Origin: Acidobacteriota bacterium
GTDB lineage: Bacteria > Acidobacteriota > UBA6911 > RPQK01 > JADFOI01
DNA: 64,000 bases
Reading direction: 5' to 3'
Assembly: GCA_963663035.1 (NCBI GenBank)
Contig: OY760074.1
Span: 2,240,001 to 2,304,000 of the forward strand
The notes below the pieces were generated by a model. That model was not told where the DNA came from, searched no databases, and was given only the letters and a program-made list of their open reading frames with translations. Within the stretch, counting starts at the first letter, position 1, and every line of letters starts with the position of its first letter. Positions 2,667-59,117 of the stretch are shown piece by piece. The position numbers and the translations under genes are program-made.

Positions 2667-2870
2667 CCCGAATTATTCATAGGTTCTCGTCATGAAGCGG
2701 CGAAAGCGCCGGTCTGACAAGGCGCGCGAGGGGTACCCGCCACGGGTCGGCTCCCGCAAACGTACTCTTGAGTACGTTGAGGAGGCGAGGGGTACCCGCT
2801 TGCGGGTCGCGCAACGCTGGCGGGGCGGATGATTTAGCCGCTGCAGTAGAGAATTTGTGAATAATCCGGG
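2667..2870. mobile_element. MITE family A copy 1 (IS1380-type ends)
   Basis: Terminal IRs are CCCGAATTATTCATAGG and rc CCCGGATTATTCACAAA. It follows CTAG, and its interior recurs at five other loci. Confidence 0.85.
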
Positions 2871-2876
2871 CTGACG

Positions 2877-3566
2877 TCACTTGTAGCGCTCAGCTGCCTG
2901 GCAGCCTAACTGAGCCAGATCAGAAAGTGCCGACAATGCAGCTTGGCGAACCTCTTCGCTATCATCCTCGGTTAGCGAAATCATTTCCTGCAAGACGGTA
3001 TCGGGAAGCTCGCTGGGGCGGTGCCAATAAGCCACAGCCAGTTCCATGACTGCCTGGGCACGCAGCTCTGTGTCCTTTTCCCTCATGAGATTGGTCAGTT
3101 CTTTCACCGCAACCACGGCACCTTGCTGCGCGAGATTTCCAATGGCTGAAAGAACCCAGCTCTTTCGATGGGAAACCAAAGGGCTCCCTCGGGAGGCCAG
3201 CTTGTAAATGTTCAGAAGCAGCTCAACGGCCTGGCCATCCCCCATCTCCCCCAGAGCGTTAATTATGGAGGCTTGCAAAGACCCGGTGCCCTTACCCTTA
3301 AAGGTGGCAGGCCTCATGAAAACTTTGTAGAGAGGCTCAATGGCGCGGGGATCGCCGAGGCTGCCAAGAGCCACAGCAGAGAATTCTCTTTGCTCCCGTT
3401 TCCCCGATTGGAGAAGCTTGAGAAGAGGATCAAAAAACAAGGGAGAGCGGACGATGCTGATGTGAGGAAGGGCCTCATAAAGCTTCTTTTCGTTTCCCTC
3501 CTCCAGAATTTTCAGACAGGTCTCAGTAAGCCTCTCGCGACCGCCAATGTCTGTGCCACGATACAT
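2877..3566 (-). CDS. HEAT-repeat protein
   Basis: Repeated A..ALG.LGD..A.E.L motifs. Confidence 0.75.
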   Translation of the reverse strand: MYRGTDIGGRERLTETCLKILEEGNEKKLYEALPHISIVRSPLFFDPLLKLLQSGKREQREFSAVALGSLGDPRAIEPLYKVFMRPATFKGKGTGSLQASIINALGEMGDGQAVELLLNIYKLASRGSPLVSHRKSWVLSAIGNLAQQGAVVAVKELTNLMREKDTELRAQAVMELAVAYWHRPSELPDTVLQEMISLTEDDSEEVRQAALSALSDLAQLGCQAAERYK

Positions 3567-3738
3567 AGTTTCTCAGCGAGTCCGAGTAGAGGAAAGGTCG
3601 TATGCATTTTCGCTCACCATGAAATTCTACCGTTGAAGACCCCAGTTTGGCATGGGCAATCTCCACTCCCTAAGCAACTCCTTTCCTCAAAGCATCCAAG
3701 GCTTTTTTAGACATTATTATGATAACATACACCCTTCT

Positions 3739-4338
3739 ATGCACAGCAAACAGTTGGTTACCGGCGCGGTCGGAATAGTGATCGGCTTTATCCTGGGATT
3801 CTTTACTTTTCAGGTTCTCGTGCAAGACCCATCAGGAGTGGGCGAACAGGGGTCTGCGACCAGCGCTTCAGCTTCCTCTCAGCTTCCAGCGGAGCATCCT
3901 CCCGAGGAAGTGATGGAAAGCCTGCGCGAACTTCAGAGCCTGGCACAAACTGATCCACAGGACAGTCAGGTCCGAATATCAATCGGAGATTCCTATTACG
4001 ATATGGGCCGCTTCGATGCAGCGATCGATTGGTATGAACAAGCCCTGCAGCTGGAACCGAACAATGTGAACGTACGGACTGATCTTGGAACCGCTTACTT
4101 GTACAGCGGCAACCCAATCAAGGCCGTGGACCGGTACAAACGATCGCTCGAAATCGAACCTGACCATGTCCAGACACTGCAGAATATTAGTGTGGCCTAC
4201 CTTTCGACCAGCAACTATGCCGAAGCGGTCGCGAATTTGGAAAAGCTGCTCGAGTTTCATCCAGACTATCCTCAGCGACAGGAAATCGAGCAGCAGATTG
4301 CGTCTATAAGAAACAACATGCAAGGAGATCCTCCTTAA
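3739..4338 (+). CDS. Membrane-anchored TPR protein
   Basis: N-terminal TM helix, LPAEHP motif and three TPRs. The start is placed at MHSKQ (ORF track starts at 3652). Confidence 0.75.
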   Translation: MHSKQLVTGAVGIVIGFILGFFTFQVLVQDPSGVGEQGSATSASASSQLPAEHPPEEVMESLRELQSLAQTDPQDSQVRISIGDSYYDMGRFDAAIDWYEQALQLEPNNVNVRTDLGTAYLYSGNPIKAVDRYKRSLEIEPDHVQTLQNISVAYLSTSNYAEAVANLEKLLEFHPDYPQRQEIEQQIASIRNNMQGDPP

Positions 4339-4608
4339 GTACTCCCTTTGAAAAATACGATGACGTTTGCGGATGGGGCTTGCGAGGCGAGGTCGCGAAG
4401 GGAGGAGGAGGCGATGCAGAGACATCGACGACGACGAGAGACAAAGAGATCGCCCGCAACCCCCATCCGCCCAAAGGGTTGGGGCGGGATGGGCCCATCT
4501 CTTTGTTGCTCCTCCTCGCCGATGTCTCGACATCGACTCGTCGTCGCGCCTCGATCTGGGCTCCGTCGCGCTCCCAACAAACGTCATCGTATTTTTGAAA
4601 GTGAGTAC
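4339..4608. mobile_element. MITE family B copy 1 (270 bp)
   Basis: About 30-bp terminal IRs GTACTC(C/A)CTTT(G/C)AAAAATACGATGACG, flanked by TAA/TAA. The interior recurs at four other loci. Confidence 0.85.
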
Positions 4609-4613
4609 TAAAG

Positions 4614-4928
4614 ATGGTCTGGATCAGCAGGATTCTTTATTTTCTTCTCTTGTTGGTCGGCTTCAGATTGATCGGCTCCTTTTTCGCCCGAGTTTTCACT
4701 GCATCGAAGAACGCAAGAGCCAGATCAGGTGCCGGCTCAAACCAAGCTGGAAAAACGATTGCCGGTCAAATGATCAAGGACCCCCAATGCGGCATGTACG
4801 TCGCCACGGACTTGGCGGTTGCGGCGGAAGTGAACGGACAAACTTTTCACTTTTGCTCCGAGGAGTGCCGCAATCACTTCATCAACGAGCAAGTGAGGAA
4901 CAACCGAACTAACAGACAAGCGGTGTGA
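4614..4928 (+). CDS. YHS/TRASH-domain membrane protein
   Basis: N-terminal TM helix, then DPQCGMYV...FCSEEC. Confidence 0.8.
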   Translation: MVWISRILYFLLLLVGFRLIGSFFARVFTASKNARARSGAGSNQAGKTIAGQMIKDPQCGMYVATDLAVAAEVNGQTFHFCSEECRNHFINEQVRNNRTNRQAV

Positions 4929-4974
4929 CCATGCCCGTGGTTTCCTGCACCACCCTGCCACGAGGGCCCTTTCT

Positions 4975-5847: not shown

Positions 5848-6891
5848 ATGCAATTCGGAATCGTTCTGGACAGCATCTTTACACGCCATTCTACGCCAGC
5901 AGGGCATCCAGAACGGCCCGCGCGGATTGAGGCAATCCTGGAAGCCGTTGAAAGGTGGGACCAAACCCGACAGTTAGTGCGAATCGCACCCAGCCCTGTG
6001 CCAGAGGAGTCGATCCTTGCCGTGCACACCAGCGAGCACTTTCAAGGCATCCGGCGCACGGCTGGGCAGAGCGTTGCTCAGCTCGATCCGGATACCTACA
6101 CCAGTCCTGATTCATTCCAGACTGCCATTCTGGCAGCCGGAAGCGTTGTGACTCTCCTGGACCAGTTACTGGAAAAGCACATCGACTCTGGATTTGCCCT
6201 GATTCGGCCACCGGGCCACCATGCTGAGAGCAACCGGGCGATGGGATTTTGTCTCCTCAACAACGTCGCGGTTGCTGCCGAGTGGGCTATCAGCAACGGT
6301 GGGTTAGAGAAGGTGGCCATTGTTGATTTTGACGTCCACCACGGAAACGGAACTCAGGAGATCTTCTACTCGCGGTCCGATGTACTCTACCTGTCCACCC
6401 ATCAGTATCCCTTTTACCCAGGGACCGGTCATTTCAATGAGATGGGTGAGAGTCAGGGTGAAGGCTTCACCGTCAACTTTCCGCTTCGCGCCGGCGGTGG
6501 AAATCATTTTTACTGCTCTCTCTTCAGTGACTTCGTGCTTCCTATGATTCGCCAATTTGATCCCAACCTGATTTTGGTTTCAGCCGGCTACGATGCCCAC
6601 AGGAGTGATCCCCTGGCCGGCATGAATCTCGAAACAGAGGGATTCGGTCAGCTCTTCAATCTGCTCAACTCCGTAGCACAAGAGATTTGTGAGGGTCGTA
6701 TCGTGTATGTCCTGGAAGGAGGGTACAACTTGAAGGCCTTGTCGGAGGCCGTTGTCTGTTCCATTGCCACAACAGTGAATCCCCAAAACTTTCCAATCCA
6801 GGAGGAGCAGGCCGTGGAATACATGAATTATCGAGAACAGGCACGGCAGGTTTTCTCGCGCCACTGGGAAGTGGGGAACGCTAACCACTGA
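5848..6891 (+). CDS. Zn-dependent histone-deacetylase-family protein
   Basis: HPERP, RPPGHH, DFDVHHGNGT, SAGYDAH and LEGGY motifs. Confidence 0.93.
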   Translation: MQFGIVLDSIFTRHSTPAGHPERPARIEAILEAVERWDQTRQLVRIAPSPVPEESILAVHTSEHFQGIRRTAGQSVAQLDPDTYTSPDSFQTAILAAGSVVTLLDQLLEKHIDSGFALIRPPGHHAESNRAMGFCLLNNVAVAAEWAISNGGLEKVAIVDFDVHHGNGTQEIFYSRSDVLYLSTHQYPFYPGTGHFNEMGESQGEGFTVNFPLRAGGGNHFYCSLFSDFVLPMIRQFDPNLILVSAGYDAHRSDPLAGMNLETEGFGQLFNLLNSVAQEICEGRIVYVLEGGYNLKALSEAVVCSIATTVNPQNFPIQEEQAVEYMNYREQARQVFSRHWEVGNANH

Positions 6892-6942
6892 CCACTGACC
6901 ACTGACCACTGACAACTGACAACTGACAGCTGACAGCTGACA
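6884..6942 (+). repeat. Heptamer tandem repeat (ACCACTG)4(ACAACTG)2(ACAGCTG)2
   Basis: Read directly from the sequence; it contains the stop codon of the deacetylase gene. Confidence 0.95.
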
Positions 6943-6949
6943 TGGGAGT

Positions 6950-7723
6950 TCAGAAGTCGGGCTGGCCGGCTCTTTCCCAGGCCATCCACCACAGGGAGCC
7001 CACTCGATAAGCGGCTTGATTCAAGCGCTCTTCCACGACCGTTCCCACTTGGTCAAACAGAAGGCTGAAGTACTGATCAGGGTATTGCTTTCGGTCTATT
7101 CCCAATTCTGAAACGATCCGTCGATCGGCCAGGAGAATCTTCTCCACCCACTGGTGACTCTCCAGAACAATATCGTAAAGCGTCGGCTGTACCTGTCCAA
7201 GATCGGTTGGAGCGGATTCCGAAAAATGAATCTGGTCAAGATTGAAATTCACCAGGTCACTTTCAAATCGAGCATGGAGCCCCACCTGTCCCGTGAGCTG
7301 ACCGTCGAAGTTCTCGGTGGTATGAAAAGGTTGGTGAAGATCAGCCACATAGTGGGAGAGATCTGAGCCGTAAAGCAAGATCTGTTCAAGATCCCGGCGC
7401 TGGAAGGCTTCGACCAGTCGGTTGAAGGTCCCGTGCGCTGCCCACAGGCCGGTCCCGTTTCTCTGTACTGTCTCTTCCCCCAACTGACCGACTAACTGGC
7501 CGTAATCCAGTTCGAGAAGGGAGAAGGGGAACTCACCATATCGTTCCAGATCAACAAAGTGGCGAGAGGATTCCTCCGGATCCCGATCCTTTCGGTAATC
7601 AGGGACCATGGTTTGCGCAACGACGCTGCTGCGGTGCTTCGAAAGGAGCTCTTCGAGATGCCCCTCGAGGTTATCGATAGCCCTGTTGGTCACCCAGTGG
7701 TGCCCGCTGGGACCCCAGGCCAA
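6950..7723 (-). CDS. S1/P1 nuclease / Zn phospholipase C-like protein
   Basis: Mature N-terminus WG..GH, plus HFVD, HYVADLHQPFH and H..FES Zn-ligand motifs. The start is uncertain (see findings). Confidence 0.85.
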   Translation of the reverse strand: MAWGPSGHHWVTNRAIDNLEGHLEELLSKHRSSVVAQTMVPDYRKDRDPEESSRHFVDLERYGEFPFSLLELDYGQLVGQLGEETVQRNGTGLWAAHGTFNRLVEAFQRRDLEQILLYGSDLSHYVADLHQPFHTTENFDGQLTGQVGLHARFESDLVNFNLDQIHFSESAPTDLGQVQPTLYDIVLESHQWVEKILLADRRIVSELGIDRKQYPDQYFSLLFDQVGTVVEERLNQAAYRVGSLWWMAWERAGQPDF

Positions 7724-9876: not shown

Positions 9877-11229
9877 CTAGTCCCGCAACCGCAGCAGCCG
9901 CTCGGCGGCCGCATGCAACACATCCATGGATTTACAAAAGGCGAAACGAATAAACCGTCTGCCCATTTCGGGTCGATGATAGAAACTACTGCCCGGCACT
10001 GCGGCAACCCCGTAGGTCTTAACCAGTTGATCGACAAATCGAACGTCATCCAGATCTGTCAGTGGCGAGATGTCGACCATAATGTAGTAGGCACCAGATG
10101 GTGTCCAAACCTTGAACCCAACTTCTTGCAGCCTCCCCACCAGATAATCCCGGCGCTCTCGATATTCTGAGGCCAGCTGCTTGTAGTACTGCCGATCCGT
10201 CCCCATTGCCTTAGTACTCCCTTTCATAAATACGGTAACGTTTGCGGATGGGGCTTGCGAGGCGAAATCGCGAAGAGAGGAGGAGGCGATGCAGAGACAT
10301 CGACTCGTCGTCGCGCCTCAATCTGGGCTCCGTCGCGCTCCCAACAAACATTACCGTATTTATGAAAGTGAGTACTCATCACCAGCTTCCTGCAAAGGAG
10401 CGGCCGCTCCAACCGTCAGGAAATCATGAATCTTGCGGATGCCGTCGGTGAGATCCGGGGGCGCGATAATGTATCCAATCCGCCAGCCCGTCACACTGAA
10501 GGTCTTGGAAAGTCCGCTGATGGTGATGGTCCGGTCCCTCATCCCGGAGAAGAGTGCAAGGGGATGATGACACTGACCGTCATAAACAATGTGCTCATAG
10601 ATCTCATCGGTAATGACGTAAAAATCGTAAGTCTTGGCAAGTGCAGACAGCTGTCCAAGTTCCTCCCGGAAAAACACCTTTCCTGAAGGATTGTTTGGAG
10701 TATTGAGTATCAGGGCACGGATCCCCCCCTGGGACTGGGCCTCTTGAATCTTCTTTTCGAGTTCCTGAAAGTCGAAGGTCCAATCGCGATCCGGGTCAAG
10801 GGCAACATAGAGGGGTGAAGCACCGGCAATGATGGCATCGGGACCATAGTTTTCATAAAAGGGCTCAAAGACAAGCACTTGATCTCCAGGATTGACCAGC
10901 GCCAGAATCGAAGAAATCATGCACTCGGTCGCACCACAGGCCACCGTGACTTCTCTTTCAGGGTCAATCTCCCAGTCATAGAATTCCCTGTACTTTTCAG
11001 CAATTGCCTGCCGGAGTCCAGCGGCACCCCAGGTAATGGCGTACTGGTTAATATCGTCTTGAATCGCCTGGCAAGCAGCGCTCTTAATCTCCTGAGGCGC
11101 TGGGAAATTAGGGAATCCTTGAGCCAGATTAATGGCATCATATTGCATCGCAAAACGCGTCATTTCTCGAATGACAGATTCGGTAAAGTGGGTGACCTTC
11201 TGGCTGGTCCGATGGGGTGACGTCGGCAT
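9877..11229 (-). pseudogene. PLP-dependent class I/II aminotransferase split by MITE B copy 2
   Basis: AINLAQGFP, NTPNNPSG, DEIY and SKTFSVTGWRIGY lie in the 5' part, and the C-terminus (IRFAFCK) lies in the same frame beyond the insert. Confidence 0.88.
10214..10375. mobile_element. MITE family B copy 2 (162 bp, internal deletion)
   Basis: Same IR family as copy 1. It lacks 108 bp between two GACATCGAC direct repeats and is flanked by TTA/TCA. Confidence 0.88.
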
Positions 11230-15163: not shown

Positions 15164-15401
15164 CCCGCATTGCTCACACCAGCTCGTGGCGAAGCGGCGG
15201 AAGGGCTGGAAAACAGAGCCGTGGGCTTTAGCCCACGGGCCCGCAGGCTAAAGCCTGCGGCTCCGACTGGCGCGCGAGGGGTACCCGCAAACGTACTCTT
15301 GAGTACGTTGAGGAGCCGAGGGGTACCCGCTTGCGGGTCGCGCAACACAGTCAGGTCGGCTCATTGCGCCGATGCAGTAGAGCAGGTGTGAGAAGTGCGG
15401 G
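15164..15401. mobile_element. MITE family A copy 2 (subtype carrying a REP doublet)
   Basis: IRs CCCGCATTGCTCACACC and rc CCCGCACTTCTCACACC, family A core, and internal GGGCTTTAGCCC palindromes. Confidence 0.85.
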
Positions 15402-15402
15402 C

Positions 15403-16599
15403 TCAGAGACTCACCGCCGAGGTCGACGCATTGTAACACTCGGTTGCAGCCTCCACCCCGGCTCCCTGGGCGCAGTGAAAGCCCTGCCTGCGCAAGCAGG
15501 TCTCCAGAGCGAAAAGAAAGTAGAGCACATTCTGAGCCTGGCTGTTCTCCCCCATCAACCCCACTCGCCAAACCTTCCCCTTCAAGTCACCCAGACCTCC
15601 GCCGATTTCCAGATTGAACTGGCTCAGCAGCTCACTTCGAACTTTCCCATCATCCACACCGGCAGGGATGCACACCGTATTCAACGACCACAGACGATAT
15701 TCGGGGTCTACGTGCATCTGCAACCCCAGTCCCTCGAATCCCGCCACCAGAGCTGTGTGATTTTGCCGGTGGCGATCGAAGCGTTCCTCCAGTCCCTCTT
15801 CCACAATGATCTTCAGCGCTTCACACAAGGCATAATTCATCGAGATGGGTGCCGTGTGATGGTACGCCCGCTCCTCACCCCAATAGGACCGGAGGAGGTT
15901 AAAGTCCAGGTACCAGCTTCTGCATGGGCTGGTGCGGGTTTTCAACTTCGCTTCAGCCTTGGGAGAAAGGGTAATGGGCGCAAGTCCAGGAGGACAGCTC
16001 AAGCACTTTTGAGTCCCGCTGTAACAAATATCGATACCCCAGGAATCGACTTCGACGGGGTGTCCTCCCAGAGAGGTCACGGCATCCACCAGCAGCAGTG
16101 AATCGAGGCTGTTACAAATTTCCCGGATGGGCTCCAAAGGTTGGAGGACTCCGGTGGAGGTTTCAGCATGCACGACGGCTATGATGCTCGGTTGGCACTT
16201 CTGGGCGGCCTCAAGCATGGCTTTCCCGCCGAGAGGCTCACCAAAGGGAGCGGAAACCACCGTGCAGTCACCGCCATTCCGGCGGACCATCTCTGCGATC
16301 CGCTGCCCGAAAACCCCGTTGACACCAACCAGGACAGACTCTCCCTCCTCAACAAAATTGGCGACTGAGGCCTCCATCCCAGCAGTTCCAGTTCCTGACA
16401 GTGGAATGGTGAAAGGGTTGCCGGTTTGAAAGACGCGCCGCAGAAGGTCCTGAATTGTATTCATGATCTCCACGAACTCGGGATCGAGATGACCGACCAG
16501 CGGCCGGCTCATGGCTCGAAGGACCCGAGACGGCACATTTGATGGCCCCGGTCCCATCAACAACCTTCCTTCTTTGCCCTTCTGTGTCAGTCTCTTCAT
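15403..16599 (-). CDS. Alanine-glyoxylate / serine-pyruvate aminotransferase (class V)
   Basis: [27 protein letters not shown] and YHHT motifs. Confidence 0.92.
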
Positions 16600-22788: not shown

Positions 22789-24427
22789 CCCGGATTATTC
22801 ATAAATTCTGAAGAAGGGGTCTGATCGAGGGCACAAAAAGATGCCGTACCTCTTTGATATAAAAGGGGTTATGAAACAACTCCAAACCAAAAAGGTACGG
22901 CCCAGCGATGCATCAGTCTGCCAGATCAACTTGCCATCTCACCCTGACAGAAAAGTGGTGGCTCGATTCGATGGAGGCCGGCTCTCCTCCGATGCCGGGC
23001 TGCTGTGTCTGTACGCCCTGGATCAACAGCACGGACTGACGGCTGGCTTTGCCTCCTGCCTGAAGGACGCTCGAGATAGCCGCTACGTCCGCCACCAGAT
23101 TCGCGAACTGCTCACCCAGCGCAGCTTTCAGATCGTGGCCGGCTATGAGGACTGCAACGATGCCGACAGCTTGCGCTCGGATCCCATCTTCAAGACCGTG
23201 TGTGATCGGCTGCCGGAAAGCGATCCGGATCTGGCTTCTCAACCCACGCTGTCGCGACTGGAGAACTCGGTGGACTCGAAGGATCTCACTCGCCTGGGAC
23301 AGTGGCTGCTGGAGACCTACTTGAAGCACCGCAAGAAGAGCCGGCCCGAGAAGATCATCCTGGACATCGACAGCACGGATGACGTCACGCATGGGCAGCA
23401 GGAGTTCAGCTTTTACCACGGCTATTATCGCGAGCACATGTATCATCCGCTGCTGCTATTCGATGGCGAGACGGGCGATCTGGTATGTGCGCTACTGCGG
23501 CCCGGCAACCAGGGGGCGGCCGCCCACGCGGTGGCGGTTCTCAAACGGGTGGTGGCCCGGATGCGCCAGGTTCTGGGATCCGATGTTCCGATCGAAGTGC
23601 GAGCCGACAGTGGCTTTGCGACGCCGGCACTGTACGAGTTCTGTGAGGAGGAAAAACTGCAGTATGTGGTGGGCTTTGCCCGCAACTCCCGGCTGGCGGC
23701 CACCGTCGAGCCCTTGGTTGAGCAGGTGCAAGCAGACTATGACGACTCAGGAGAAAAGCAACGCCAGTTCACCGAGCTCGTCTATCAGGCCGACAGTTGG
23801 GACCGGGAGCGGCGCATGGTGGCCAAGGTGGAAGTGAGCGAGCGCGGGTTCAACCGTCGCTTTGTGGTCACCAACCGCCAGGATCTCACGGCCGGGCAGC
23901 TGTATGACCACTACATCGGACGGGGCCAGTGCGAGAACTTCGTGAAAGCTTTCAAAAAAGATCTGGCCATGGATCGCTTGAGCTGCCACCGTTTCCTGGC
24001 CAACCAGTTCCGACTCTTCATCCACGCCCTGGCCTATGTCTTAATCCTGCGCCTGCGGGATTACCTGTGCGGGACTCCCTGGCACAACCTGGAGATTGAG
24101 ACGCTCCGCCGCCGCCTGTTCAAAATCGGTGCCCGGGTTCGGGAAACTTCTCGTCGCATCTGGGTGCACCTGGCATCGTCTTATCCCGAACAAAAGCTCT
24201 TCGCATTACTGATGCACCGTCTGTGTCCCACCTGACGGTCCCCTGACTCCCTGCGCCAACACAGATATACAGCCCCCTGCGGGCCGAGCTGTTTCCGGAA
24301 GGGGCTCTCGCTTCATCTCTATTCGGCTCAACAAGCTTGGACGCCTTGTAATCGCACCTGAACACACTCTCAGCCCTGAACTTCCGCAGAAAATCGACAC
24401 TCACCCCAAACTTATGAATAATTGCGG
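22789..24427 (+). mobile_element. IS1380-family insertion sequence
   Basis: IRs CCCGGATTATTCATAA and rc CCGCAATTATTCATAA, with a CTAG duplication at 22785-22788 and 24428-24431. Confidence 0.92.
22841..24235 (+). CDS. IS1380-family DDE transposase
   Basis: FDGG.LSSDAG, GYED.ND, LDIDST, RADSGF and Y..RG..EN..K motifs. Confidence 0.93.
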   Translation: MPYLFDIKGVMKQLQTKKVRPSDASVCQINLPSHPDRKVVARFDGGRLSSDAGLLCLYALDQQHGLTAGFASCLKDARDSRYVRHQIRELLTQRSFQIVAGYEDCNDADSLRSDPIFKTVCDRLPESDPDLASQPTLSRLENSVDSKDLTRLGQWLLETYLKHRKKSRPEKIILDIDSTDDVTHGQQEFSFYHGYYREHMYHPLLLFDGETGDLVCALLRPGNQGAAAHAVAVLKRVVARMRQVLGSDVPIEVRADSGFATPALYEFCEEEKLQYVVGFARNSRLAATVEPLVEQVQADYDDSGEKQRQFTELVYQADSWDRERRMVAKVEVSERGFNRRFVVTNRQDLTAGQLYDHYIGRGQCENFVKAFKKDLAMDRLSCHRFLANQFRLFIHALAYVLILRLRDYLCGTPWHNLEIETLRRRLFKIGARVRETSRRIWVHLASSYPEQKLFALLMHRLCPT

Positions 24428-25263
24428 CTAGGTAGTTTGGCCTCTGGCGCCGGCGGCCGATAGGCCAAGGCGCTGTGAGGCCGGATCTGATTGTAATCCC
24501 TCCGCCAGCGTTCTACCAACACCTTGGCTTCCCCCAGCGTGTCGAAGATCTCCATGTTCAGCAGCTCATCCCGTAGTTTCCCGTTGAAACTCTCAATGTA
24601 CCCATTCTCCCAGGGGCTGCCCGGCTCGATGTACAAGGTCCTTACCCCAACAGCCTGCAGCCAGTCCCGGACCGCCTGTGCCGTAAACTCCGATCCGTTA
24701 TCGGACCGGATAAACTCAGGCACTCCCCGATCAACGAATAACTCCGCCAGCCGGTCCAACACGTCTTGGCGATTCATCTGCCGTTTCACATCAATGGCGA
24801 GGCACTCTCTGGTGTACTCATCCAGGATCGTCAATAGCCGAAAGGCTCGCCCATCATGGGTCCGTTCATGCACGAAATCATAGCTCCAGACGTGGTTCTT
24901 GCGAGCCGCTCGTAACCGAACACAGGAACCGTCATTAAGCCACAGCCTCCTTCGTTTCGGCTGTCTGGACGGGACTTTCAGCCCTTCTTGTCTCCACAGC
25001 CTCTCCACCCGCTTAGGATTCACCTTCCACCCTTCCCCATGAAGTATCGCCGTGACCCGCCGGTAGCCATAACGCCCGTATTGCGTAGCCAACTCCACCA
25101 TCCGGGCCACCAATCGGGCCTCATCATCGGGAATTTGCCTTTCCCTTCGCTGGGTCGATCGAACCTGTCCCAGCACTTGGCAGGCCCGACGTTCGGAGAC
25201 TCGCTCTGCTCCTAATCGCTCTCGTACCCACATCACCGCTCGTCTCCTGTTCGCCGGGTCTAG
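24412..25263 (-). CDS. IS3 OrfB transposase (DDE); native C-terminus displaced by IS1380
   Basis: YGYRR, WSYDF, SDNG.EF, PW.NG.IESFN and RPHSAL motifs. Confidence 0.9.
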
Positions 25264-28943: not shown

Positions 28944-28949
28944 TGAAAG

Positions 28950-29094
28950 CCCGAACGATGCATAGGTTTTCGTAACGAGGCGCCGAAAGCGCCGTCCTGA
29001 CCAGGCGCGCGAGGGGTACCCGCTTGCGGGTCGCGCAACGCAGTCAGGGCGGATGATTAGGGAGCCACAGTAGAAAATCTATGCATCGTCCGGG
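28950..29094. mobile_element. MITE family A copy 3 (145 bp, central hairpin deleted)
   Basis: IRs CCCGAACGATGCATAG and rc CCCGGACGATGCATAG. The deletion falls between the AGGGGTACCCGC repeats seen in copy 1. Confidence 0.85.
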
Positions 29095-29106
29095 CTAAGC
29101 CGCATC

Positions 29107-31844: not shown

Positions 31845-31915
31845 AGTTCTCCGGCTCAATCTCCTGAAAAACCGAGGGCAGCGGATTTTGCCGTTCGGAG
31901 AGAGTTTGGAATATG

Positions 31916-32089
31916 CCCGGAGTATGCATAGGTTCTCGTCATGAAGCGGCGAAAGCGCCGGCCTGACAAGGCGCGCGACGGAAGCCCCCGCAAACGTACT
32001 CTTGAGTACGTTGAGGAGGCTGATCGAGTGCAACGCTGGCAGGGCGGATGATTTCGCTGCTGCAGTAGAGAATTTATGCATATTCCGGG
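31916..32089. mobile_element. MITE family A copy 4
   Basis: IRs CCCGGAGTATGCATAG and rc CCCGGAATATGCATAA, with the family A core. Confidence 0.85.
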
Positions 32090-32108
32090 CAAACAGACAC
32101 GGCCCTGA

Positions 32109-36343: not shown

Positions 36344-38770
36344 ATGTTTGGCCCGCACTTCTCACACCTGCTCTACTGCATCGGCGAAATGATCCGACCT
36401 GACTACGTTTCACGACCCGCAAGCGGGTACCCCTCGGCTCCTCAACGTACTCAAGAGTACGTTTGCGGGGGCCGACCCGTGGCGGGTGCCCCTCGCGCGC
36501 CAGTCGGAGCCGCAGGCTTTAGCCTGCGGGCCCGTGGGCTAAAGCCCACGGCTCTGTTTTCCGTCCCTTCCGCCGCTTCGCGACGACCTGGTGTGAGAAA
36601 TGCGGACTTTAGCGGCTGGACTCAAAAAGTACACCTGCTCCTGGGGATAGCGCTGCTGGGATGCTGGTGGACACAGGATATCTTTGGCGCCGACGAGGAG
36701 AAGACACTCACCGCGCTCTACATCACCTCTCCAATTGTGGTTGACGGAACCCTCGACGAGGCGGAGTGGAGCCTTGCACAGCCAGCCACTGATTTTATTC
36801 AGACCGAGCCCAGAGAGGGAGAACCGGCCACAGAACCCACCGAGGTACGGCTTCTTTATGACGATGAGTACCTCTATGTCGGGGTCTATTGCTTTGACTC
36901 GGCGGGTCAAGAGGGTCTCGTTGTGACCGACGTGAGAAGAGATTACCCCCCTGCTCAAACTGATCACTTCGCAATGCTGCTGGATACCTTTGACGATAAT
37001 CGCAACGGCTTTCTCTTCGGTACTAACCCGGCAGGAGCCATGCGCGAGGGTCAGATAGGAGGAGACGGTCAGACTACCAACTTTGATTGGGACGCCGTTT
37101 GGTCCGTGAAGACCAAACTCACAGACTCGGGCTGGCAGATTGAAATGGCGATTCCCTTCAAGACCTTACGCTTCCGGGACAACGAACGCCAGACTTGGGG
37201 AGTGAATTTTGTGCGACGGATTCGTCGCAAGAACGAAGACACCCACTGGACACACATTCCACGTCCTTACCGAATGAGCAGGGTCTCACTGGCGGGTGAA
37301 CTGGACGGCATTAGCGGTATCCGTCAAGGGCGTAACCTTTATTTCAAACCCTACCTCTTAGCTCCTGTCTTGCGCCGTGAAGGGGATGACATCGATTTTC
37401 TTCCCGATGCGGGTTTTGACGCCAAATACGGAGTCACTTCAGGCCTGACCCTGGATTTGACTGTCAACACCGACTTTGCCCAGGTTGAAGCGGACCAGCA
37501 ACAGATCAATTTGACTCGATTCAGCCTCTTTTTTCCCGAGAAGCGCGAGTTTTTCCTGGAAAACTCCAATATCTTTGGGTTTGGCACCCCGGCCAGAGGG
37601 TTTCGCGCTTCGCGCGACCTCATTCCTTTTTTCAGCCGCAGGATTGGCATCTCCGGAGGCGATCTGGTGCCCATCCTGGGAGGCCTCCGCCTCAGCGGAA
37701 CCGCTGGCAAATATCGTGTGGGCGTTCTTTCCATGCAGACCGATGAATTCGAAGACACTCCGACCACCAACTTTTCCGTGGCCCGGGTTCGCCGAGATCT
37801 CTTTCTCAACTCAGACATCGGTGCCATCTTTGTCAACAAACAGGTCAGCGGCGGCGAGTTTAATCGCACCTACGGCCTGGATACCAATTTGAGCTTCTTT
37901 CGATATCTGGACATTTCTTCTTTTCTGCTGAAAACCGCTACCACCGGGGAGCAAGGCAAGGATGCGGCTGGGAGTTTCCGCATCAGTTGGAATGACCGGC
38001 TGTTCGATATCCATGGTGATCATCTCTCCATCCAGGAGAACTTCAATCCCGAAGTGGGCTTTGCGCCCCGCAAAGGGATTCGAAAAAGTACAGGAACATT
38101 CACTGTTCGACCAAGACCTGGGGAGAGGATCCCCTGGATTCGGGAGTTTCGACCCAACATTGGAATTGAGTACCTGACCAACCAGGAGAACTTGCTGGAG
38201 ACTCGAATCATTACCCAAAATGTGCAGGTTTCATTTGAGAACAGCAGTAGCCTGTGGTTCACCCGCCGGGAGAACTTCGAACGTCTGGACGAAGCTTTCG
38301 AGATCCGGGATAATCAACTCATCCCGGCCGGTGACTATTCAACCACGGACTACAACTTTTCCTTTAACAGCGACAGGAGTCGCATGTTCAGAGGCAATCT
38401 CACACTCAGGACAGCTAGTTTCTGGGATGGCGAAAAGGATTCCCTCCAGCTGGGATTTGGGTTCCAGCCGGGCTACCAGTTTGGAGCCGAGGTCTCCTGG
38501 GCCCATGACGACATCTCTCTGCCCTCAGGGAACTTCAAAACCAACCTGGTAACGACACGCTGGCGCTATTCCTTCAGCCCCATTATGTTCTTGAACGCGC
38601 TGATCCAGTACAACGATACCAGAGAGGAAATTGCCAGCAACCTCCGCTTCAATTTTACCTACAAACCCCTCAGTGATTTCTTTCTGGTCTACAATGAGAG
38701 GCGCAGCACCACCGGAGAGGTCACGGAGAGGGCCTTGATCGGGAAGCTCACCTACGTCTTTGACTTCTAG
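36344..38770 (+). CDS. CBM9-like plus DUF5916-like outer-membrane protein, with an in-frame MITE near its start
   Basis: DG.LDE..W, E..IPF..LRF and N.DF.QVEAD...NL.RF..FFPEKR.FF.E motifs, and a C-terminal Phe. Confidence 0.75.
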   Translation: MFGPHFSHLLYCIGEMIRPDYVSRPASGYPSAPQRTQEYVCGGRPVAGAPRAPVGAAGFSLRARGLKPTALFSVPSAASRRPGVRNADFSGWTQKVHLLLGIALLGCWWTQDIFGADEEKTLTALYITSPIVVDGTLDEAEWSLAQPATDFIQTEPREGEPATEPTEVRLLYDDEYLYVGVYCFDSAGQEGLVVTDVRRDYPPAQTDHFAMLLDTFDDNRNGFLFGTNPAGAMREGQIGGDGQTTNFDWDAVWSVKTKLTDSGWQIEMAIPFKTLRFRDNERQTWGVNFVRRIRRKNEDTHWTHIPRPYRMSRVSLAGELDGISGIRQGRNLYFKPYLLAPVLRREGDDIDFLPDAGFDAKYGVTSGLTLDLTVNTDFAQVEADQQQINLTRFSLFFPEKREFFLENSNIFGFGTPARGFRASRDLIPFFSRRIGISGGDLVPILGGLRLSGTAGKYRVGVLSMQTDEFEDTPTTNFSVARVRRDLFLNSDIGAIFVNKQVSGGEFNRTYGLDTNLSFFRYLDISSFLLKTATTGEQGKDAAGSFRISWNDRLFDIHGDHLSIQENFNPEVGFAPRKGIRKSTGTFTVRPRPGERIPWIREFRPNIGIEYLTNQENLLETRIITQNVQVSFENSSSLWFTRRENFERLDEAFEIRDNQLIPAGDYSTTDYNFSFNSDRSRMFRGNLTLRTASFWDGEKDSLQLGFGFQPGYQFGAEVSWAHDDISLPSGNFKTNLVTTRWRYSFSPIMFLNALIQYNDTREEIASNLRFNFTYKPLSDFFLVYNERRSTTGEVTERALIGKLTYVFDF
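36352..36606. mobile_element. MITE family A copy 5 (inverted, REP-doublet subtype, 255 bp)
   Basis: Near reverse complement of 15164-15401, with IRs CCCGCACTTCTCACACC and rc TCCGCATTTCTCACACC. Confidence 0.85.
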
Positions 38771-47841: not shown

Positions 47842-48897
47842 ATGGGGGATACCCTTCCAAAGCTCAAGGCGGCCGCAGTACAGGCGGCGCCCATACTGCT
47901 CGATCGTGAAGCAACCGTTGCCAAGGCCTGTCGGCTCATCGAGGAAGCCGGCGACTCTGGAGCAAAGGTGATCGGCTTTCCCGAGTGCTACATCCCAGGA
48001 CATCCCTATTGGTATGACTTCTACGTAGCAAACGATCCGATCTGTAGCTCCTTCAATCTGGAACTCTTCAAGAATGCTGTGGTCGCGCCAAGTCCCGCCA
48101 CCGAGGCACTGGGACAAGCGGCGCGGCGTGCCCAGGCTTATGTGGTGATGGGCATCGCCGAAAAGGACGCGGGCAGCTACGGCACCCTCTATAACACTCA
48201 GCTTTTCTTCGGGCCCGATGGCACTCTGCTGGGAAAGCATCGGAAACTTGTCCCCACCAGCTGGGAACGTCTGGTTCACACGGGTGGTGATGGGAGTACC
48301 TTGAACACATTTGACACTCCTTTTGGCGGACTCTCAGGTCTCATTTGCGGCGAGAACATCAATAGTCTGGCGCGTACCGCCCTGCTGCTGGAGGGCGAAG
48401 TGGTTCATGTAGCAAGCTGGCCAGCCTTCGCCACTCAGGGCTACGAACGCCAGTTCCACACCATGGATGTCCGAATGCGTTACTACGCTTTCGAAGGGCG
48501 CATCTTCGTCATTTCGGCGGCCTCCGTGTGGAGCGAAGAAATGAAAGATGTGCTTCAACTGGACTCCCACGCCCGCGCCCGCTTTATCGGCGATGGAGGT
48601 CATTCTGGAGTTCTCGATCCGATGGGCGACTACATCGCCGGTCCCCAGGACGAAGGTGAGACAATCCTTTACGCTGACCTGGATTTGGAGCAGGTCACAA
48701 AGGGCAAGCTACTGCATGACGTCACCGGCCATTACCAGCGCTTTGACGTTTTCTCTCTCCAGGTGAATCGACAGGCCTACGGGCCCAATCTCGTTGGGCC
48801 AGGAGCGGAAAAGCAAGTTGGGCCGCTGGAGGGCAGCCCGGAAAGCGAAGCGGACAGCGACGTGCTTGTGCATGACCCAGATCTCGTCCAGACTTAG
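47842..48897 (+). CDS. Nitrilase
   Basis: AAVQAAP, FPE, HRKL.PT..ER, ICGEN and D..GHY.R.DV motifs. Confidence 0.9.
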   Translation: MGDTLPKLKAAAVQAAPILLDREATVAKACRLIEEAGDSGAKVIGFPECYIPGHPYWYDFYVANDPICSSFNLELFKNAVVAPSPATEALGQAARRAQAYVVMGIAEKDAGSYGTLYNTQLFFGPDGTLLGKHRKLVPTSWERLVHTGGDGSTLNTFDTPFGGLSGLICGENINSLARTALLLEGEVVHVASWPAFATQGYERQFHTMDVRMRYYAFEGRIFVISAASVWSEEMKDVLQLDSHARARFIGDGGHSGVLDPMGDYIAGPQDEGETILYADLDLEQVTKGKLLHDVTGHYQRFDVFSLQVNRQAYGPNLVGPGAEKQVGPLEGSPESEADSDVLVHDPDLVQT

Positions 48898-50550: not shown

Positions 50551-50565
50551 TGGCCGCCCAGCTAA

Positions 50566-50837
50566 GTGCTCCCTTCCAAACATACGGTGATGTTTGCGGA
50601 GAGGGCTTGTGAGGCAAGGTCAAGGAGCGAGAAGGAGGCGATGTCCCAGGACATCATCGACGACGAGCGACGAAGAGATTGACCGCAACCCCCCTCCGCC
50701 CAAAGGGTTGCGGCGCTGCGCCTCCATCTTCTATGTTGCTCCTCCTGGGCGATATCCCGTATCGACTCGTCGGAGCGCCTTGAATACGGGGGCGGAGCGC
50801 TAGCAACAAAGATTATCGTATGTTTGGAAGTGAGCAC
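50566..50837. mobile_element. MITE family B copy 3 (diverged)
   Basis: IRs GTGCTC(C/A)CTTCCAAACATACG at both ends; the interior is homologous to copy 1. Confidence 0.82.
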
Positions 50838-50980
50838 TATGACGTGTCGTCACTTGTCGGAGTGTAAACTTCCGTTGACACTTTCGCAGGCCTCGACGGT
50901 TCCAGGTGTATCCCAAGACTCGCCTATAACTCCAATTATTACAATAGCTTAATAGCATTCTACCAGTAATCCTTCATCTC

Positions 50981-50996: not shown

Positions 50997-51278
50997 CTAG
51001 TAAGGAGACTGATGTGTCGTCCTTGAGTTAAACCGGCCATACATACCGATCAAAGCTGCTTTGGCTCGCGAACTGAAATGACAAAAGAGGGAGGTAGAAT
51101 TTGTTTCAACCGATGAAATCAGTCTTGTGGTCTGATTGATGGAGAACCTGCTAGGGTTTCCCATCAATCGAATCCTAAAGACACACGACCGGCAGGTGTG
51201 CGCCCTACAGAATCTGTCTAGGGCGCACGACCCTGTTTTCCTCAGGCCCTCCTACAACTCAGCCCCGATAACTACTAG

Positions 51279-51317
51279 CCCGGATGACGCATATATTCTC
51301 TACTGCAGCGGCGAATC
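51279..51317. mobile_element. One-ended remnant of MITE family A
   Basis: CTAG|CCCGGATGACGCATATATTCTCTACTGCAGCGGCGAA resembles the end of copy 6 (CCCGGATTATGTATAAATTCTCTACTGCAGC). Confidence 0.65.
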
Positions 51318-52151
51318 CACGGAAGCGGCTCGTTTGCGCCCTCCTGCCACCAGATAGACTACCGACCCAATTCCCCACAGCAACAAAGTAAAAATCAGGC
51401 CTTCGACCACATGACCGAACATGTGCCCCCAAGTGTTCGCTTCCTGTGGACCCGGATGACGCATATAGTACTGCAGCGGCGTAGCGGCTCGTTTGCGCCC
51501 TCCTGCCACCAGAAGTACCGACCCAATCGATGCCCCCAAGTGTTCGCTTCCTGTGGACCCGTGTAGTAAGTATCGATTCCTCCAAAGTCATCGATGGCAA
51601 TGCCGAGAATCACAAACAGCATGGCGGAGAAAGCAAACAAAGCAGCCAGAACAAGTAGATCGCGAAAAGTCCCCCCCCCGGCGTGCCACTGCCACGGAAT
51701 AGATCAGCATAATGATGGGGAGCAGTATGGTGAGGCTCACCCAGTTCGTCCCTTGCTCAGAAGGAATCTGAAAAAGGGGTTGGAGTAGAAAGCGCACTAT
51801 CGCCATCAGCAGCAGTAGTCCTATTCCCACGCGAGCGTCTCTCAGTACTCACTTTCATAAATACGGTAACGTTTGTTGGGAGCGCGACGGAGCCCAGATC
51901 GAGGCGCGACGACGAGTCGATGTCGAGACATCGGCGAGGAGGAGCAACACAGAGATGGGCCCGTCCCGCCCCAACCCTTCGGGCGAATGGGGGTTGCGGG
52001 CGATCTCTTTGTCTCTCGTCGTCGTCGATGTCAGGACATCGCCTCCTCCTCCCTTCGCAACCTCGCCTCGCAAGCCCTATCCGCAGACGTGATCGTATTT
52101 ATGAAAGGGAGTACTAAGGTACTGACTAAACGGTTTGTCAAAAAGCTTCAT
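51300..52151 (-). pseudogene. Membrane-protein gene disrupted by MITE B copy 4, a G9 frameshift and a partial duplication
   Basis: Reconstructs to MKLFDKPFSQYLRDARVGIGLLLL...GGTFRDLL...GPQEANTWGHMFGH...DSPLQ, with an AAGGAA RBS. Confidence 0.7.
51845..52114. mobile_element. MITE family B copy 4 (inverted, 270 bp)
   Basis: Near reverse complement of 4339-4608, flanked by TCA/TAA. Confidence 0.88.
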
Positions 52152-56217: not shown

Positions 56218-56490
56218 GTGTCTCGTCCCATGAATACCATAACGTTTGTGGCGAGCGCGACGGCAACGAGTTCACGAAGCGACGACGACGCGATGTCTGT
56301 GTGCATCGCGGAGGAGGAGCGACAAAGAAATTGATGCCGTCCCGCCGCCACCCTTCGGGCTGATGGGGGTTGCGGGCGATCTCTGCGTCGCTCGTCGTCG
56401 CCAATGTCCCTGCATCACCTCCTCCTCGCTCCTTGATCTCCCCTCCCAAGCCCCATCAGCAAACGTCATGCTATTCATGGGACGAGATAC
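56218..56490. mobile_element. MITE family B copy 5 (inverted, diverged)
   Basis: IRs GT(G/A)TCTCGTCCCATGAATA at both ends; the interior is homologous to copy 4. Confidence 0.8.
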
Positions 56491-57465: not shown

Positions 57466-57469
57466 CTTT

Positions 57470-57533
57470 TCGCGGCCTGAGGCGGCTCCCACGTGGGAGC
57501 CGCCTCAAATTCGGCACCTGAGGTGCCTCCCAC
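57470..57533. repeat. REP-like GTGGGAGCCGCCTCA palindrome cluster between convergent genes
   Basis: TGAGGCGGCTCCCAC-GTGGGAGCCGCCTCA is a perfect inverted repeat of the same unit as at 17343-17415. Confidence 0.75.
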
Positions 57534-57562
57534 GGACCATAGAATCATTTGAGCAACACGCC

Positions 57563-58900
57563 CTAGGATTTAGGATTTTGACTCTTGAGTCCCCTTTTCC
57601 TGCTTCCACGAAACAGCAAGCGAATCGGGGTGGCATAGAAACCATACTTCTCACGCAGACGGTTCACCACGAAGCGCTGGGTTGAAAAATGCAGTTTTTG
57701 GGAAGCGCGGGTGAAAAAAACAAAGGTTGGCGGAGTCACCGCTACCTGGGCAGCATACTTGACGGGGAACCTCCAGGAACGGCCTGCCGACGACAGCATA
57801 GGTTGAAGGTCCGTCTCCAGAAACTTGTTGAGTTCAGCTGTCGGAACGCGCAGCAGTCGAGCCTTCTGGGCCTCCCCGACGAGCTCAAGGATCTTAGTGA
57901 CCCGCAAACCCGTCTTTGCGGAGACAAAGATCATCGGTGCGTAGTCCAGAAAGCGCATGCGCAAACGAAACTCCGTCTCCAAGCGGGCTGCCGTGTGAGT
58001 GTCCCGAGCAATCAAATCCCACTTGTTGACCACCACGATGACCGATCTGCCCGCTTGATGGGCATAGCCTCCGATGGTGGCATCCAGCTTGGTGGCCCCT
58101 TCCGTGGCCTCGATCACTAATAGAACGACGTCGGCTCGCTCCAGGCTTTTTCGCGCCATCAGAACACACAACTTTTCCGCCTCGAGTTCTGTTTTTCCCT
58201 TGCGGCGAATTCCCGCCGTATCGATCAGACGATAGGACTGACCTTTGAACTGCAAAACGGAATCAATTGCATCACGAGTGGTACCTGGGAGGTCAGTGAC
58301 AATGGCTCGCTCTTGACCCAGGAGGCGATTCAGCAGTGAAGACTTGCCGACGTTGGGACGACCAATGATGGCAACCCTGAGTTCTTCTTCGCTGCTTGAC
58401 TCCGCCGATTCTGGAATGCGTTCCAGGATCTCCTCAACCAGGACCGAAACCCCCAGTTTGTGCTCAGCGGAAACCGAGTAAAGCATTTTCACACCAAAGC
58501 TATAGAATTGCGCCACCTCTGGTTCCAGTTGCGGGACATCCACTTTGTTGACCACCAAAAGAAACTCCCTGCCGCGGGAGCGCAAAAGAGAATTCAAGGT
58601 CTCGTCCAGTGGACTGATGCCCTGGCGGGCATCCACTACAAAGAGAATGAGGTCAGCTTCCTCCATGGCGATTTCCGCCTGCTGCAGGATCCTCTCCGGA
58701 ATGATCTCTTTCTGGTCAGGAATGAGCCCACCGGTGTCGATCACCTCGAATTGCTTCCCATTCCATCGAGCCATTTCGAAGAGGCGATCCCGAGTTATTC
58801 CCGGTTCTTTCCCTACAATGGCCTTGCGTTTACGGGTGAGCCGATTAAAGAGGGTGGATTTCCCCACGTTTGGTCTTCCAACGATGGCGACTCGATACAT
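57563..58900 (-). CDS. der: Ribosome biogenesis GTPase Der (EngA)
   Basis: Two GRPNVGKS G-domains with DTGG/DTAG and NKVD/NKWD. Confidence 0.96.
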   Translation of the reverse strand: MYRVAIVGRPNVGKSTLFNRLTRKRKAIVGKEPGITRDRLFEMARWNGKQFEVIDTGGLIPDQKEIIPERILQQAEIAMEEADLILFVVDARQGISPLDETLNSLLRSRGREFLLVVNKVDVPQLEPEVAQFYSFGVKMLYSVSAEHKLGVSVLVEEILERIPESAESSSEEELRVAIIGRPNVGKSSLLNRLLGQERAIVTDLPGTTRDAIDSVLQFKGQSYRLIDTAGIRRKGKTELEAEKLCVLMARKSLERADVVLLVIEATEGATKLDATIGGYAHQAGRSVIVVVNKWDLIARDTHTAARLETEFRLRMRFLDYAPMIFVSAKTGLRVTKILELVGEAQKARLLRVPTAELNKFLETDLQPMLSSAGRSWRFPVKYAAQVAVTPPTFVFFTRASQKLHFSTQRFVVNRLREKYGFYATPIRLLFRGSRKRGLKSQNPKS

Positions 58901-58911
58901 GTCAACGTTAG

Positions 58912-59117
58912 CCCGGATTATGTATAAATTCTCTACTGCAGCAACGAAATCATCCGCCCTGCCTGCGTTGCGCGACCCACAAGCGGGGTACCCCTCGGTC
59001 TCCTCAACGTACTATACAGTACGTTGCGGGGGCCGACCCGCAAGCGGGTACCCCTCGCGCGCCTTGTCAGGTCGGCGCTTTCGTCGCTTCGTGACGAGAA
59101 CCTATACATCATTCGGG
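58912..59117. mobile_element. MITE family A copy 6 (inverted)
   Basis: IRs CCCGGATTATGTATAA and rc CCCGAATGATGTATAG; it contains the hflX stop codon. Confidence 0.85.

Follow-up and report, generated by a model that had tools for sequence, protein, structure and literature searches.

The DNA analysed here (the window, 64,000 nt, G000:C1:2240001-2304000) belongs to a genome assembled as a single contig (G000, 3.59 Mb, 54.5% G+C), and relatives of one of its proteins are labelled Acidobacteriota. It contains two families, A and B, of short non-coding multi-copy elements with terminal inverted repeats, which places them among the MITEs (miniature inverted-repeat transposable elements). The ends read GCCSGGATTATGCATAGGTTYTCGT in family A and AGTACTCCCTTTCATAAATACGG in family B, and both families, as covariance models matched across genomes show, enclose one core. 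This core is a structured nucleic-acid motif, probably under selection, with conserved non-canonical positions and with stems that covary above controls. The probability that MITE-like elements share one selected, structured core is put at about 0.85.

The core consists of an outer stem, AAGGCGCG, a G/A-rich helix, a hairpin, TCGAGGAG, GCAACGC and the return of the outer stem. The outer stem is free in sequence, and the terminal hairpin stem is variable yet stays paired. B-type units of other genomes have the same frame as the A core, with the consensus GATC-AAGGCGCG-AGGAGGAGG-CGATGC..GCATCG-TCGACGACGAG-CAACGC-CGAGATCG. Across phylum labels the flanks AAGGCGCGACGACGA and TCGAGGAGGAGCAACGC are near-constant and the hairpin stems differ (CGTAT/ATACG, GTGCC/GGCAC, AATATT, CGATG/CATCG, CGTAG/CTACG). 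Core stems are likewise swapped with pairing kept in A-type loci elsewhere, for example to GCGGACC/GGTCCGT in G304. A preliminary description of this DNA held that the flanking motifs are kept between the families. The frame is indeed shared, but GAGGAGG is not a free motif: it is a helix strand, paired with CCCCCGC in the A core, and it covaries (e.g., GAGCAGG opposite CCCGCGC in G040 and G028). A bulged A, one G.A and one C.A are conserved in the A core. Non-canonical G.A positions and a G.U beside the hairpin are conserved too.

Compensatory stem changes, also proposed in that description, were found in 9 of the 19 pairs of the A core model and in 10 of the 12 pairs of the B-type units. In an alignment of 55 units (A3), 96.3% of 629 pair cells are standard pairs, compared with 74.4% in shuffles (0/500 reach the observed value), and double-sided changes occur in 105 cells against 28.9 in shuffles. 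The covariation score is 0.491, and slid controls give 0.01-0.055. The three G-C steps of the inner helix flip jointly between unit types (CG 30/GC 24 at one pair, CG 32/GC 18 at another), which accounts for the exchange of (GAG)n and (GAC)n between the two sides; tandem G.A pairs are possible at the positions between these steps. G.U cells exceed A.C cells on the modelled strand, by 20 to 6 in B-type units and by 31 to 7 in the A core, a weak sign that one defined strand folds. The core is better conserved than the surrounding arms and ends.

Three covariance models connect the families. R1 was made from 28 A core sequences of six genomes, R2 from 43 B units, and R3 (62 positions) from 55 B-type units, with G000 and A-type sequences both kept out. 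Run on the window with its filters off, R3 placed the eight full B units on top (all E<=1.4e-11), and the next seven ranks were the short B unit and six A cores, every one on the correct strand and two at E<0.01. Only four unrelated matches were obtained in this 128-kb search (E 0.33-0.8). Among 35 family A loci of other genomes, R3 found the core in 32, in 25 of them at E<0.01 (best 5e-7). In the opposite direction, R1, which holds A sequences only, matched B-type units elsewhere at E 2e-4 to 7e-3 in 7 of the 28 loci searched and at 0.012-0.015 in three more (75 kb, filters off). The unit of locus L149 is an intermediate (..GACGCAGG-CGATG..CATCG-TCGAGGAGGCG..), matched at the same place by R1 (E 6e-4) and R2. 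Because R3, without any A or G000 input, matches both families in the window and the A core elsewhere, and R1 matches B-type units of other genomes, A and B carry one motif and their cores form one motif family. The copies in G000 have each drifted differently away from the common form. A scan of the whole of G000 with R3 gave 89 matches, of which 83 are at B loci, 5 at copies of a further family, C, and 1 at a B remnant. One unpublished genome, G017, supplied loci L098, L107, L113 and L140 (2/55 rows of alignment A3, 2/35 A loci and one end type), and no conclusion depends on it alone.

Both families are true interspersed repeats. Family A has 199 BLAST loci in G000, 126 of them full-length copies, with seven loci in the window. 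The corresponding numbers for family B are 52 and 26, and five of its full-length copies lie in the window:

Family A copy 1, 2665-2873 (+): 209-nt form that has, besides the frame and the apical hairpin, two additional GGGGTACCCGC..GCGGGTCG hairpins; core apex 2750-2786; R1 E 3.5e-5; R3 E 0.17 at 2755-2783 (+).
Family A copy 2, 15262-15403 (+): left end diverged; BLAST match 15284-15403, core model match 15262-15336; R1 E 2.5e-5; R3 E 0.17 at 15286-15314.
Family A copy 3, 28948-29096 (+): 150-nt form; frame AAGG/CAACGC retained, apical G/A helix and hairpin swapped for the GGGGTACCCGCTTGCGGGTCG hairpin; R1 E 3e-4; R3 E 0.0035 at 28998-29049.
Family A copy 4, 31915-32092 (+): simple 178-nt form, the usual one elsewhere; core 31962-32042 at the apex of the rod; R1 E 1.3e-20; R3 E 0.0075 at 31974-32035; fold z -10.0.
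Motifs of family A copy 4 (+), string positions: AAGGCGCG at 31968-31975 and GCAACGC at 32030-32036.
Family A copy 5, 36351-36524 (-): core apex 36431-36473; R1 E 1.8e-5; R3 E 0.17 at 36439-36467 (-).
Family A end fragment, 51277-51315 (-): found by BLAST.
Family A copy 6, 58910-59119 (-): 210-nt form; core 58957-59071; R1 E 4.9e-4; R3 E 0.27 at 58957-59069.
Family B copy 1, 4338-4610 (+): 273 nt; inverted units 4391-4452 (+) and 4495-4556 (-); matched by R2; R3 E 5.8e-15 and 3.2e-20.
Family B copy 2, 10213-10377 (+): short 165-nt form with a single hybrid unit, 10266-10326; R2 E 1.7e-5; R3 E 0.031 at 10275-10316.
Family B copy 3, 50565-50839 (+): subfamily with AGTGCTCC ends; units 50618-50681 (+) and 50725-50785 (-); matched by R2; R3 E 3.1e-17 and 1.4e-14.
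Family B copy 4, 51843-52115 (-): units 51897-51958 (+) and 52001-52062 (-); R3 E 2e-20 and 1.4e-11; fold z -9.97.
Motifs of family B copy 4, string positions: GAGGCGCG at 51901-51908 and GCAACAC at 51944-51950.
Family B copy 5, 56233-56475 (-): ends diverged; units 56270-56333 (+) and 56377-56438 (-); matched by R2; R3 E 1.8e-16 and 4.4e-20.

The strings quoted in the preliminary description are all found where it placed them, its outer stems and B copy 3 unit are present as well, and its account of one core in family A and two inverted cores in family B is confirmed by the window copies, the short B copy 2 with its one hybrid unit apart.

Full copies of family A measure 150-270 nt, in size classes of ~150, 180, 195, 210 and 260 nt, and additional hairpin modules are inserted in them at fixed points. 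The module GGGGTACCCGCTTGCGGGTCG is nearly restricted to this family (174/176 hits). Family B is built of two inverted units flanking a short centre, except for the 165-nt form. The elements of both families fold as long rods (z close to -10 for the fourth copy of each, as listed above). At filled sites, the only ones considered, family A is flanked by TA on the left in 59/109, on the right in 70/109 and on both sides in 31/109 copies, and the flanks of family B read T-N-A on both sides, with the middle base agreeing in just 5/26. Relative to flanking genes in G000, 35 A copies have the same and 37 the opposite orientation; the corresponding numbers for B are 9 and 8. With the origin at ~3.20 Mb and the terminus at ~1.22 Mb, both taken from GC skew, 47 of the 126 family A copies have their sense strand on leading-strand sequence and the other 79 on lagging-strand sequence (p = 0.0055); no significant skew was obtained for family B (10 vs 16).

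Compared within G000 only, the families are not linked by alignment. The A profile gave no nhmmer hit in the 26 B copies at E<=100, and the B profile gave eight weak hits in the 126 A copies (E>=17), none inside the core. Smith-Waterman scores of A versus B against dinucleotide shuffles ranged from z -0.64 to 1.70 over 10 settings; in another run of local alignment 303/500 and 7/500 shuffles scored equally well, and alignments anchored at the element terminus gave z -1.6 to 2.15. Local and terminus-anchored alignments were no better than dinucleotide shuffles or random genomic windows. On the window, R1 found 6/6 A cores and 0/9 B units even at E<=10, and R2 found 9/9 B units and 0/6 A cores. 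In a flank test anchored at the hairpin, the best B contexts outscored all 3172 other hairpin contexts in resemblance to the A flanks, and shuffles of the same composition attained their score in 3, 35, 33 and 0 of 2000; this test alone is suggestive of a likeness inside G000, and its result is borderline. An nhmmer profile of 25 distant units placed 33% of 42 A cores above the 95th percentile of shuffles, a weak signal with a maximum of just 3.8 bits, and pairwise local alignments of distant units with A cores, also weak, reached z 3.4. A composite pattern (AGGCG[CT]G, 7-bp hairpin, GAGGA, GCAAC) matches 11 A and 11 B copies and nothing else; it was drawn up post hoc, carries little weight and was set aside. 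The claim of a common core therefore stands on R1 and R3 and the link that they make through other genomes, and is not significant from the window or the genome by itself; as for A-B similarity beyond shuffles within G000, the alignments speak against it and the hairpin-anchored test leaves it borderline.

Searches with the covariance models found the core with many further end types, in G000 (family C) as well as in other phyla. Among 41 genomes of the genus, family and order (G000 included), family A occurs in 25 and family B in 27. The simple 178-nt A element has matches in 18/301 sampled genomes at E<=1e-5. Eleven of the 18, which belong to other classes or to distant families, align at positions ~52-122 only, which make up the core (73-86% identity), and not in the arms. 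Such distant A-type loci have the same build, related ends (GCCCGCATTTCTCA..), unalignable arms and an intact core. R2 found B-type units in 26/151 genomes of the phylum. Outside G000 these units sit in rod-shaped elements with quite different ends, bounded mostly by CTAG, a scarce sequence in G000 (2882 sites). Of 50 such elements from other genomes, 41 show inverted ends (arms 13-45 nt long), most of which begin at CTAG, and spans are ~165-190 or 275-290 nt. The end types number 28 by an over-splitting clustering script and ~15 by eye. The ends had been described as unrelated. Many end types do carry the core, but many also resemble, through a loose ..CCTGT.A.CAG.. pattern, the ends of an IS630-family element in G077.

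A permissive pattern scan of 185,579 species genomes extended the search, taxa among the matches listed being taken as evidence only where confirmed by R2. Units were confirmed in 15 of 80 loci among the matches listed: seven labelled Acidobacteriota or Thermoanaerobaculia, the rest Phycisphaeraceae (two contigs), Brocadiaceae, Methylomirabilota, Thermodesulfobacteriota, Candidatus Staskawiczbacteria and 'bacterium' (two). The core is thus present in Acidobacteriota and in metagenome-assembled genomes (MAGs) labelled Planctomycetota, Thermodesulfobacteriota, Methylomirabilota and a lineage of the candidate phyla radiation (CPR). R3 matches in these genomes are as follows:

G329, Phycisphaeraceae: at least 137 matches.
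G332, Thermodesulfobacteriota: 50 matches.
G331, Brocadiaceae: 10 matches.
G333, Candidatus Staskawiczbacteria, 0.7 Mb: 10 matches.
G330, Methylomirabilota: 3 matches.

In G329, ~100 identical end matches were found, mostly at contig ends (0 in a reversed-pattern control), and copies lying wholly inside a contig measure ~158 nt.

Family C of G000 (~125 nt, ends GCGGGTGTTCAGGGAGG) has the apex GACCGCAGG-CGTAGCC-TAA-GCTACG-TCGAGGATCG and is thus a third family of this genome with the same apex as A and B. Nine of the 26 full B copies are inserted in the TA of the hairpin loop of a family C core (e.g., G000:C1:480133-480531 and eight similar places), and the ~400-nt B-in-C composite has itself multiplied. 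A comparable nesting occurs in G199 (L111:900-1290), where a 214-nt single-unit element with CAGCCCGTGATCAAAGTCCTG ends is inserted inside the core of an A-type element. Family B copies of G029 and G035 (L015, L017), from other families of the order, are 90-93% identical to a window copy, which suggests recent horizontal spread.

The reading that we favour takes A, B and C as lineages of one large group of non-autonomous rod-shaped MITEs, mostly flanked by TA or CTAG, all of which would carry one old, selectively maintained apical stem-loop domain. The inner helix of this domain would be made of G-C pairs separated by tandem G.A pairs, with (GAC)n/(GAG)n-type strands. Folded as a single strand of defined polarity, the domain would act in cis and serve as the recognition site for a protein needed for the spread or persistence of the element, for example one that helps a very short element to join up its two ends or that processes its transcript. 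The ends would be acted on by diverse IS630-type enzymes or by another enzyme. Taken as a whole, this explanation is considered probable; the specific mechanism, a cis-acting protein site, is put forward tentatively. The preliminary description had suggested a functional RNA or single-stranded DNA motif that recruited the ends of different transposons; the ends may also have turned over around a core that was inherited. The core is structured, covarying and better conserved than arms and ends, as that would have it, but its function, presumably that of a single-strand protein site in RNA or DNA, is what we infer. A more far-reaching form, which we regard as rather doubtful, makes the core the recognition module of an undescribed mobilisation or processing system, in which a protein would read the folded single strand (RNA or lagging/leading-strand DNA) at the rod apex and the inverted ends would for the most part form the rod's base. 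Such a system would explain the high copy numbers without a matching DDE transposase and the occurrence of one domain over at least five phylum labels.

A number of observations weigh against the favoured reading. In ~50 of the 126 full A copies the module GGGGTACCCGCTTGCGGGTCG substitutes the apical G/A helix and hairpin, so that the apical part would be dispensable. The covariation is counted in cells and not in independent events, and A3 is an alignment fitted to a model; the custom models R1-R3 give approximate E-values. Compensatory changes in a DNA palindrome can come from intra-hairpin repair without selection, and one A copy is a perfected palindrome (G000:1169389). The phylum labels are those of MAG records, for which mis-binning is possible in genomes with few copies. 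On the side of a partner enzyme, no DDE_3 (PF13358) gene was found in the complete genome G000, nor in G118, G155, G332, G333, G331 or G330, and no DDE_Tnp_4 gene in the five genomes tried. No R3 match lies within 1.5 kb of the two Y1 transposase genes (PF01797) of G000, and no core within 1.5 kb of the eight other transposase loci tested (DDE_3 or DDE_Tnp_1 genes being among the ten loci in all). The IS630-family element of G077 has its own leader without the core.

The search for an autonomous parent insertion sequence (IS) gave no better result. In G329, DDE_3 is present just as a fragment. Long-spaced A or B end pairs in G000 are copies interrupted by other sequences, and the candidates among them were rejected: an A copy disrupted by an IS256-like gene (G000:C1:1121540-1123146), A-like ends around an ordinary 721-aa gene that is not a transposase, and a B copy disrupted by a two-frame IS3-like element (G000:C1:3446405-3447947). 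A solo end in G329:C31 was discarded as well, its neighbour being an ordinary repeat-rich protein gene and not a transposase. The linked protein gene that the preliminary description had envisaged was not found near the core in the transposase loci and carrier genomes searched. The ends of the IS630-family gene of G077 loosely resemble several end types. This 363-370-aa element was retrieved in four copies (L143, L145, L147, L149), each of which directly adjoins a unit-bearing MITE at an end, and at L149 element and MITE share TAG; this vicinity may reflect target preference, or chance in a very repeat-rich genome.

Among the alternatives, the one that survives best makes the core a structured RNA acting after transcription, as a processing or stability element of host messages or as a small RNA, which is spread by MITEs and does not serve transposition; its conservation would stem from RNA-protein or RNA-RNA contacts that benefit host or element. 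The excess of G.U over A.C on one strand, the conserved non-canonical G.A positions with the G.U adjoining the hairpin, and the centre loops of two-unit elements, which read CCCTTCGGG or CCCGAAGGG, are in line with it. Contigs from three metatranscriptome runs hold A and B sequence, one of them joining a B copy to a relative of its neighbour gene, but contigs cannot reveal strand, ends or level, and stretches that they leave uncovered carry no information. Compared with an expressed neighbour gene, the elements have little RNA-library depth for the depth that they reach in the DNA run. Nor do the elements favour one orientation to flanking genes (A 35/37, B 9/8), and two-unit elements have one unit per strand. 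Sheared G.A helices and GNA loops, moreover, are stable in DNA as well as in RNA. The absence of a match in Rfam, foreseen as a check in the preliminary description, also counts against this alternative: at gathering threshold Rfam 15 found one tRNA alone in the window, and in E-value scans of A copies, B copies and seven canonical-core loci the best match was MIR1858, with 32.6 bits against a cut-off of 137. A post-transcriptional role of this kind is held to be unlikely, though worth keeping in view.

It is improbable that the core is functionless inherited filler, around which ends were exchanged or drifted while horizontal spread kept the copies alike. The 92-93% identity of family B in G029 and G035, which belong to other taxonomic families, suggests transfer; the elements have a mosaic build, in which hairpin modules are inserted and copies nested; and the ~100 identical copies of G329 show recent bursts. 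Neutral flanks, however, should diverge like stem and arms, and they are instead near-constant across phylum labels, with stems replaced and pairing kept; the mismatched positions (G.A, C.A and the bulged A) are conserved too.

Very little speaks for the core as the remnant leader of a parental IS, a hairpin hiding the ribosome-binding site (GGAGG) and the ATG (within CGATG) of a transposase gene and kept after internal deletion. The L-type units of family B do place GGAGGAGG 2-5 nt ahead of an ATG, ~76 nt in from the end of the element, with an open frame that exits the element. The ATG, however, is not conserved (stems CGTAT, GTGCC, AATATT, CGTAG and CGTAC), the differences in hairpin length are not multiples of three, and GAGGAGG and its partner strand covary. 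The single IS630-family element that was examined, that of G077, has a coreless leader, and no core adjoins the 10 other transposase loci; on the unconserved ATG and these last two grounds the idea was rejected. A coding role was rejected in the same way, since hairpin lengths break any common frame. That A and B resemble each other by chance, as two GC-rich palindromic repeats, is scarcely credible: nhmmer, Smith-Waterman and both reciprocal covariance models do fail to link them inside G000, and the shuffle-based nhmmer enrichment is weak, but independent models (R1, R3) connect them via other genomes, and the six A cores rank straight after the B units in the 128-kb search, on the right strand.

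Several other repeats were noticed in the window. The segment at 23907-24431 (-) belongs to a repeat with ~30 genome copies, 99.6-100% identical over ~525 nt, which is presumably a very active IS. Between the A fragment and B copy 4 lie two 42-nt direct repeats (51413-51454 and 51520-51561), 88% alike and 107 nt apart. Summed depth over the intergenic stretch 6889-7205 is very high in the DNA run as well as in each of the three RNA-library runs, and loose ends lie at 6894-6938; this suggests another short repeat or conserved element.

The interiors of MITEs are normally treated as neutral leftovers. Bacterial MITEs of the IS630/Tc1-mariner type include the Correia elements of Neisseria, for which a central functional site is known. 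Such MITEs are similar to the present elements in being short and non-coding, with inverted ends, in many copies TA flanks in a CTAG-like target, high copy number, intergenic location and a long-hairpin fold. They differ in that here one covarying internal domain is common to many end types and several phyla, and the cognate transposase was not found in most carrier genomes searched. The ERIC elements (enterobacterial repetitive intergenic consensus, also known as intergenic repeat units, IRU) and the modular BOX elements are imperfect palindromes of ~130 nt with a conserved central inverted repeat and size variants made by internal insertions at fixed points, and family A likewise has size forms (150/180/195/210/260 nt) from insertions at fixed points. 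ERIC/IRU and BOX, however, have one end type and narrow hosts, whereas the present core spans phylum labels and end types. The attC sites of integrons have a variable terminal structure set between conserved flanks, conserve unpaired bases as well, and act as folded single strands of defined polarity. The core shares this arrangement of flanks and terminal structure, but by eye it has no attC box consensus, it shows no link to an integrase, and the elements are dispersed and not arranged in cassette arrays.

The closest idea to a shared MITE core is that of the coral CMITEs (PMC2872659), which are eukaryotic and piggyBac-linked, with sequence unrelated to the core and no covarying hairpin stated in the abstract. 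Repetitive extragenic palindromes (REP) and the bacterial interspersed mosaic elements (BIME) are short palindromes recognised as folded single strands by REP-associated tyrosine transposases (RAYT), often dimeric and sometimes within longer inverted repeats, and a special tyrosine transposase group with long inverted repeats is noted there in Acidobacteria (PMC3733652). Judged by eye, the core is without the terminal GTAG or CGTC tag at the position defined in that source; the present elements have long inverted ends and TA flanks, and no core lies near the two Y1 genes of G000. REP-like hairpins of another kind, CCGTGGGCTTTAGCCCACGG and CCGCAGGCTAAAGCCTGCGG, occur in G000 singly or paired ~25 nt apart, with 121 and 79 hits outside family A (e.g., G000:C1:468928-468998, and at 48434, 177130 and 325801, all outside the window); they are also found inserted in 260-nt A forms, and none is near the two Y1 transposase genes. 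A text search did not find the core strings in the papers that it covered. Papers on MITEs in Acidobacteria and on MITEs with conserved interiors and different ends gave no bacterial precedent, the supplements of a 2024 MITE census (PMC11602168), which may hold these elements, lying outside the search.

An internal domain of ~60-80 nt with covarying stems and near-constant non-canonical flanks contrasts with the view of MITE interiors as neutral leftovers. It reaches tens to >100 copies per genome, including genomes labelled with four phyla beyond Acidobacteriota, one of them a 0.7-Mb CPR genome. The 62-position model, together with a defined consensus, provides a testable handle, and the core is a practical marker for repeats that break metagenome assemblies. 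If the core acts as RNA, it would be a widespread structured RNA class absent from Rfam; if the domain is needed for spread, it would point to a step or factor, so far undescribed, by which very short transposons move.

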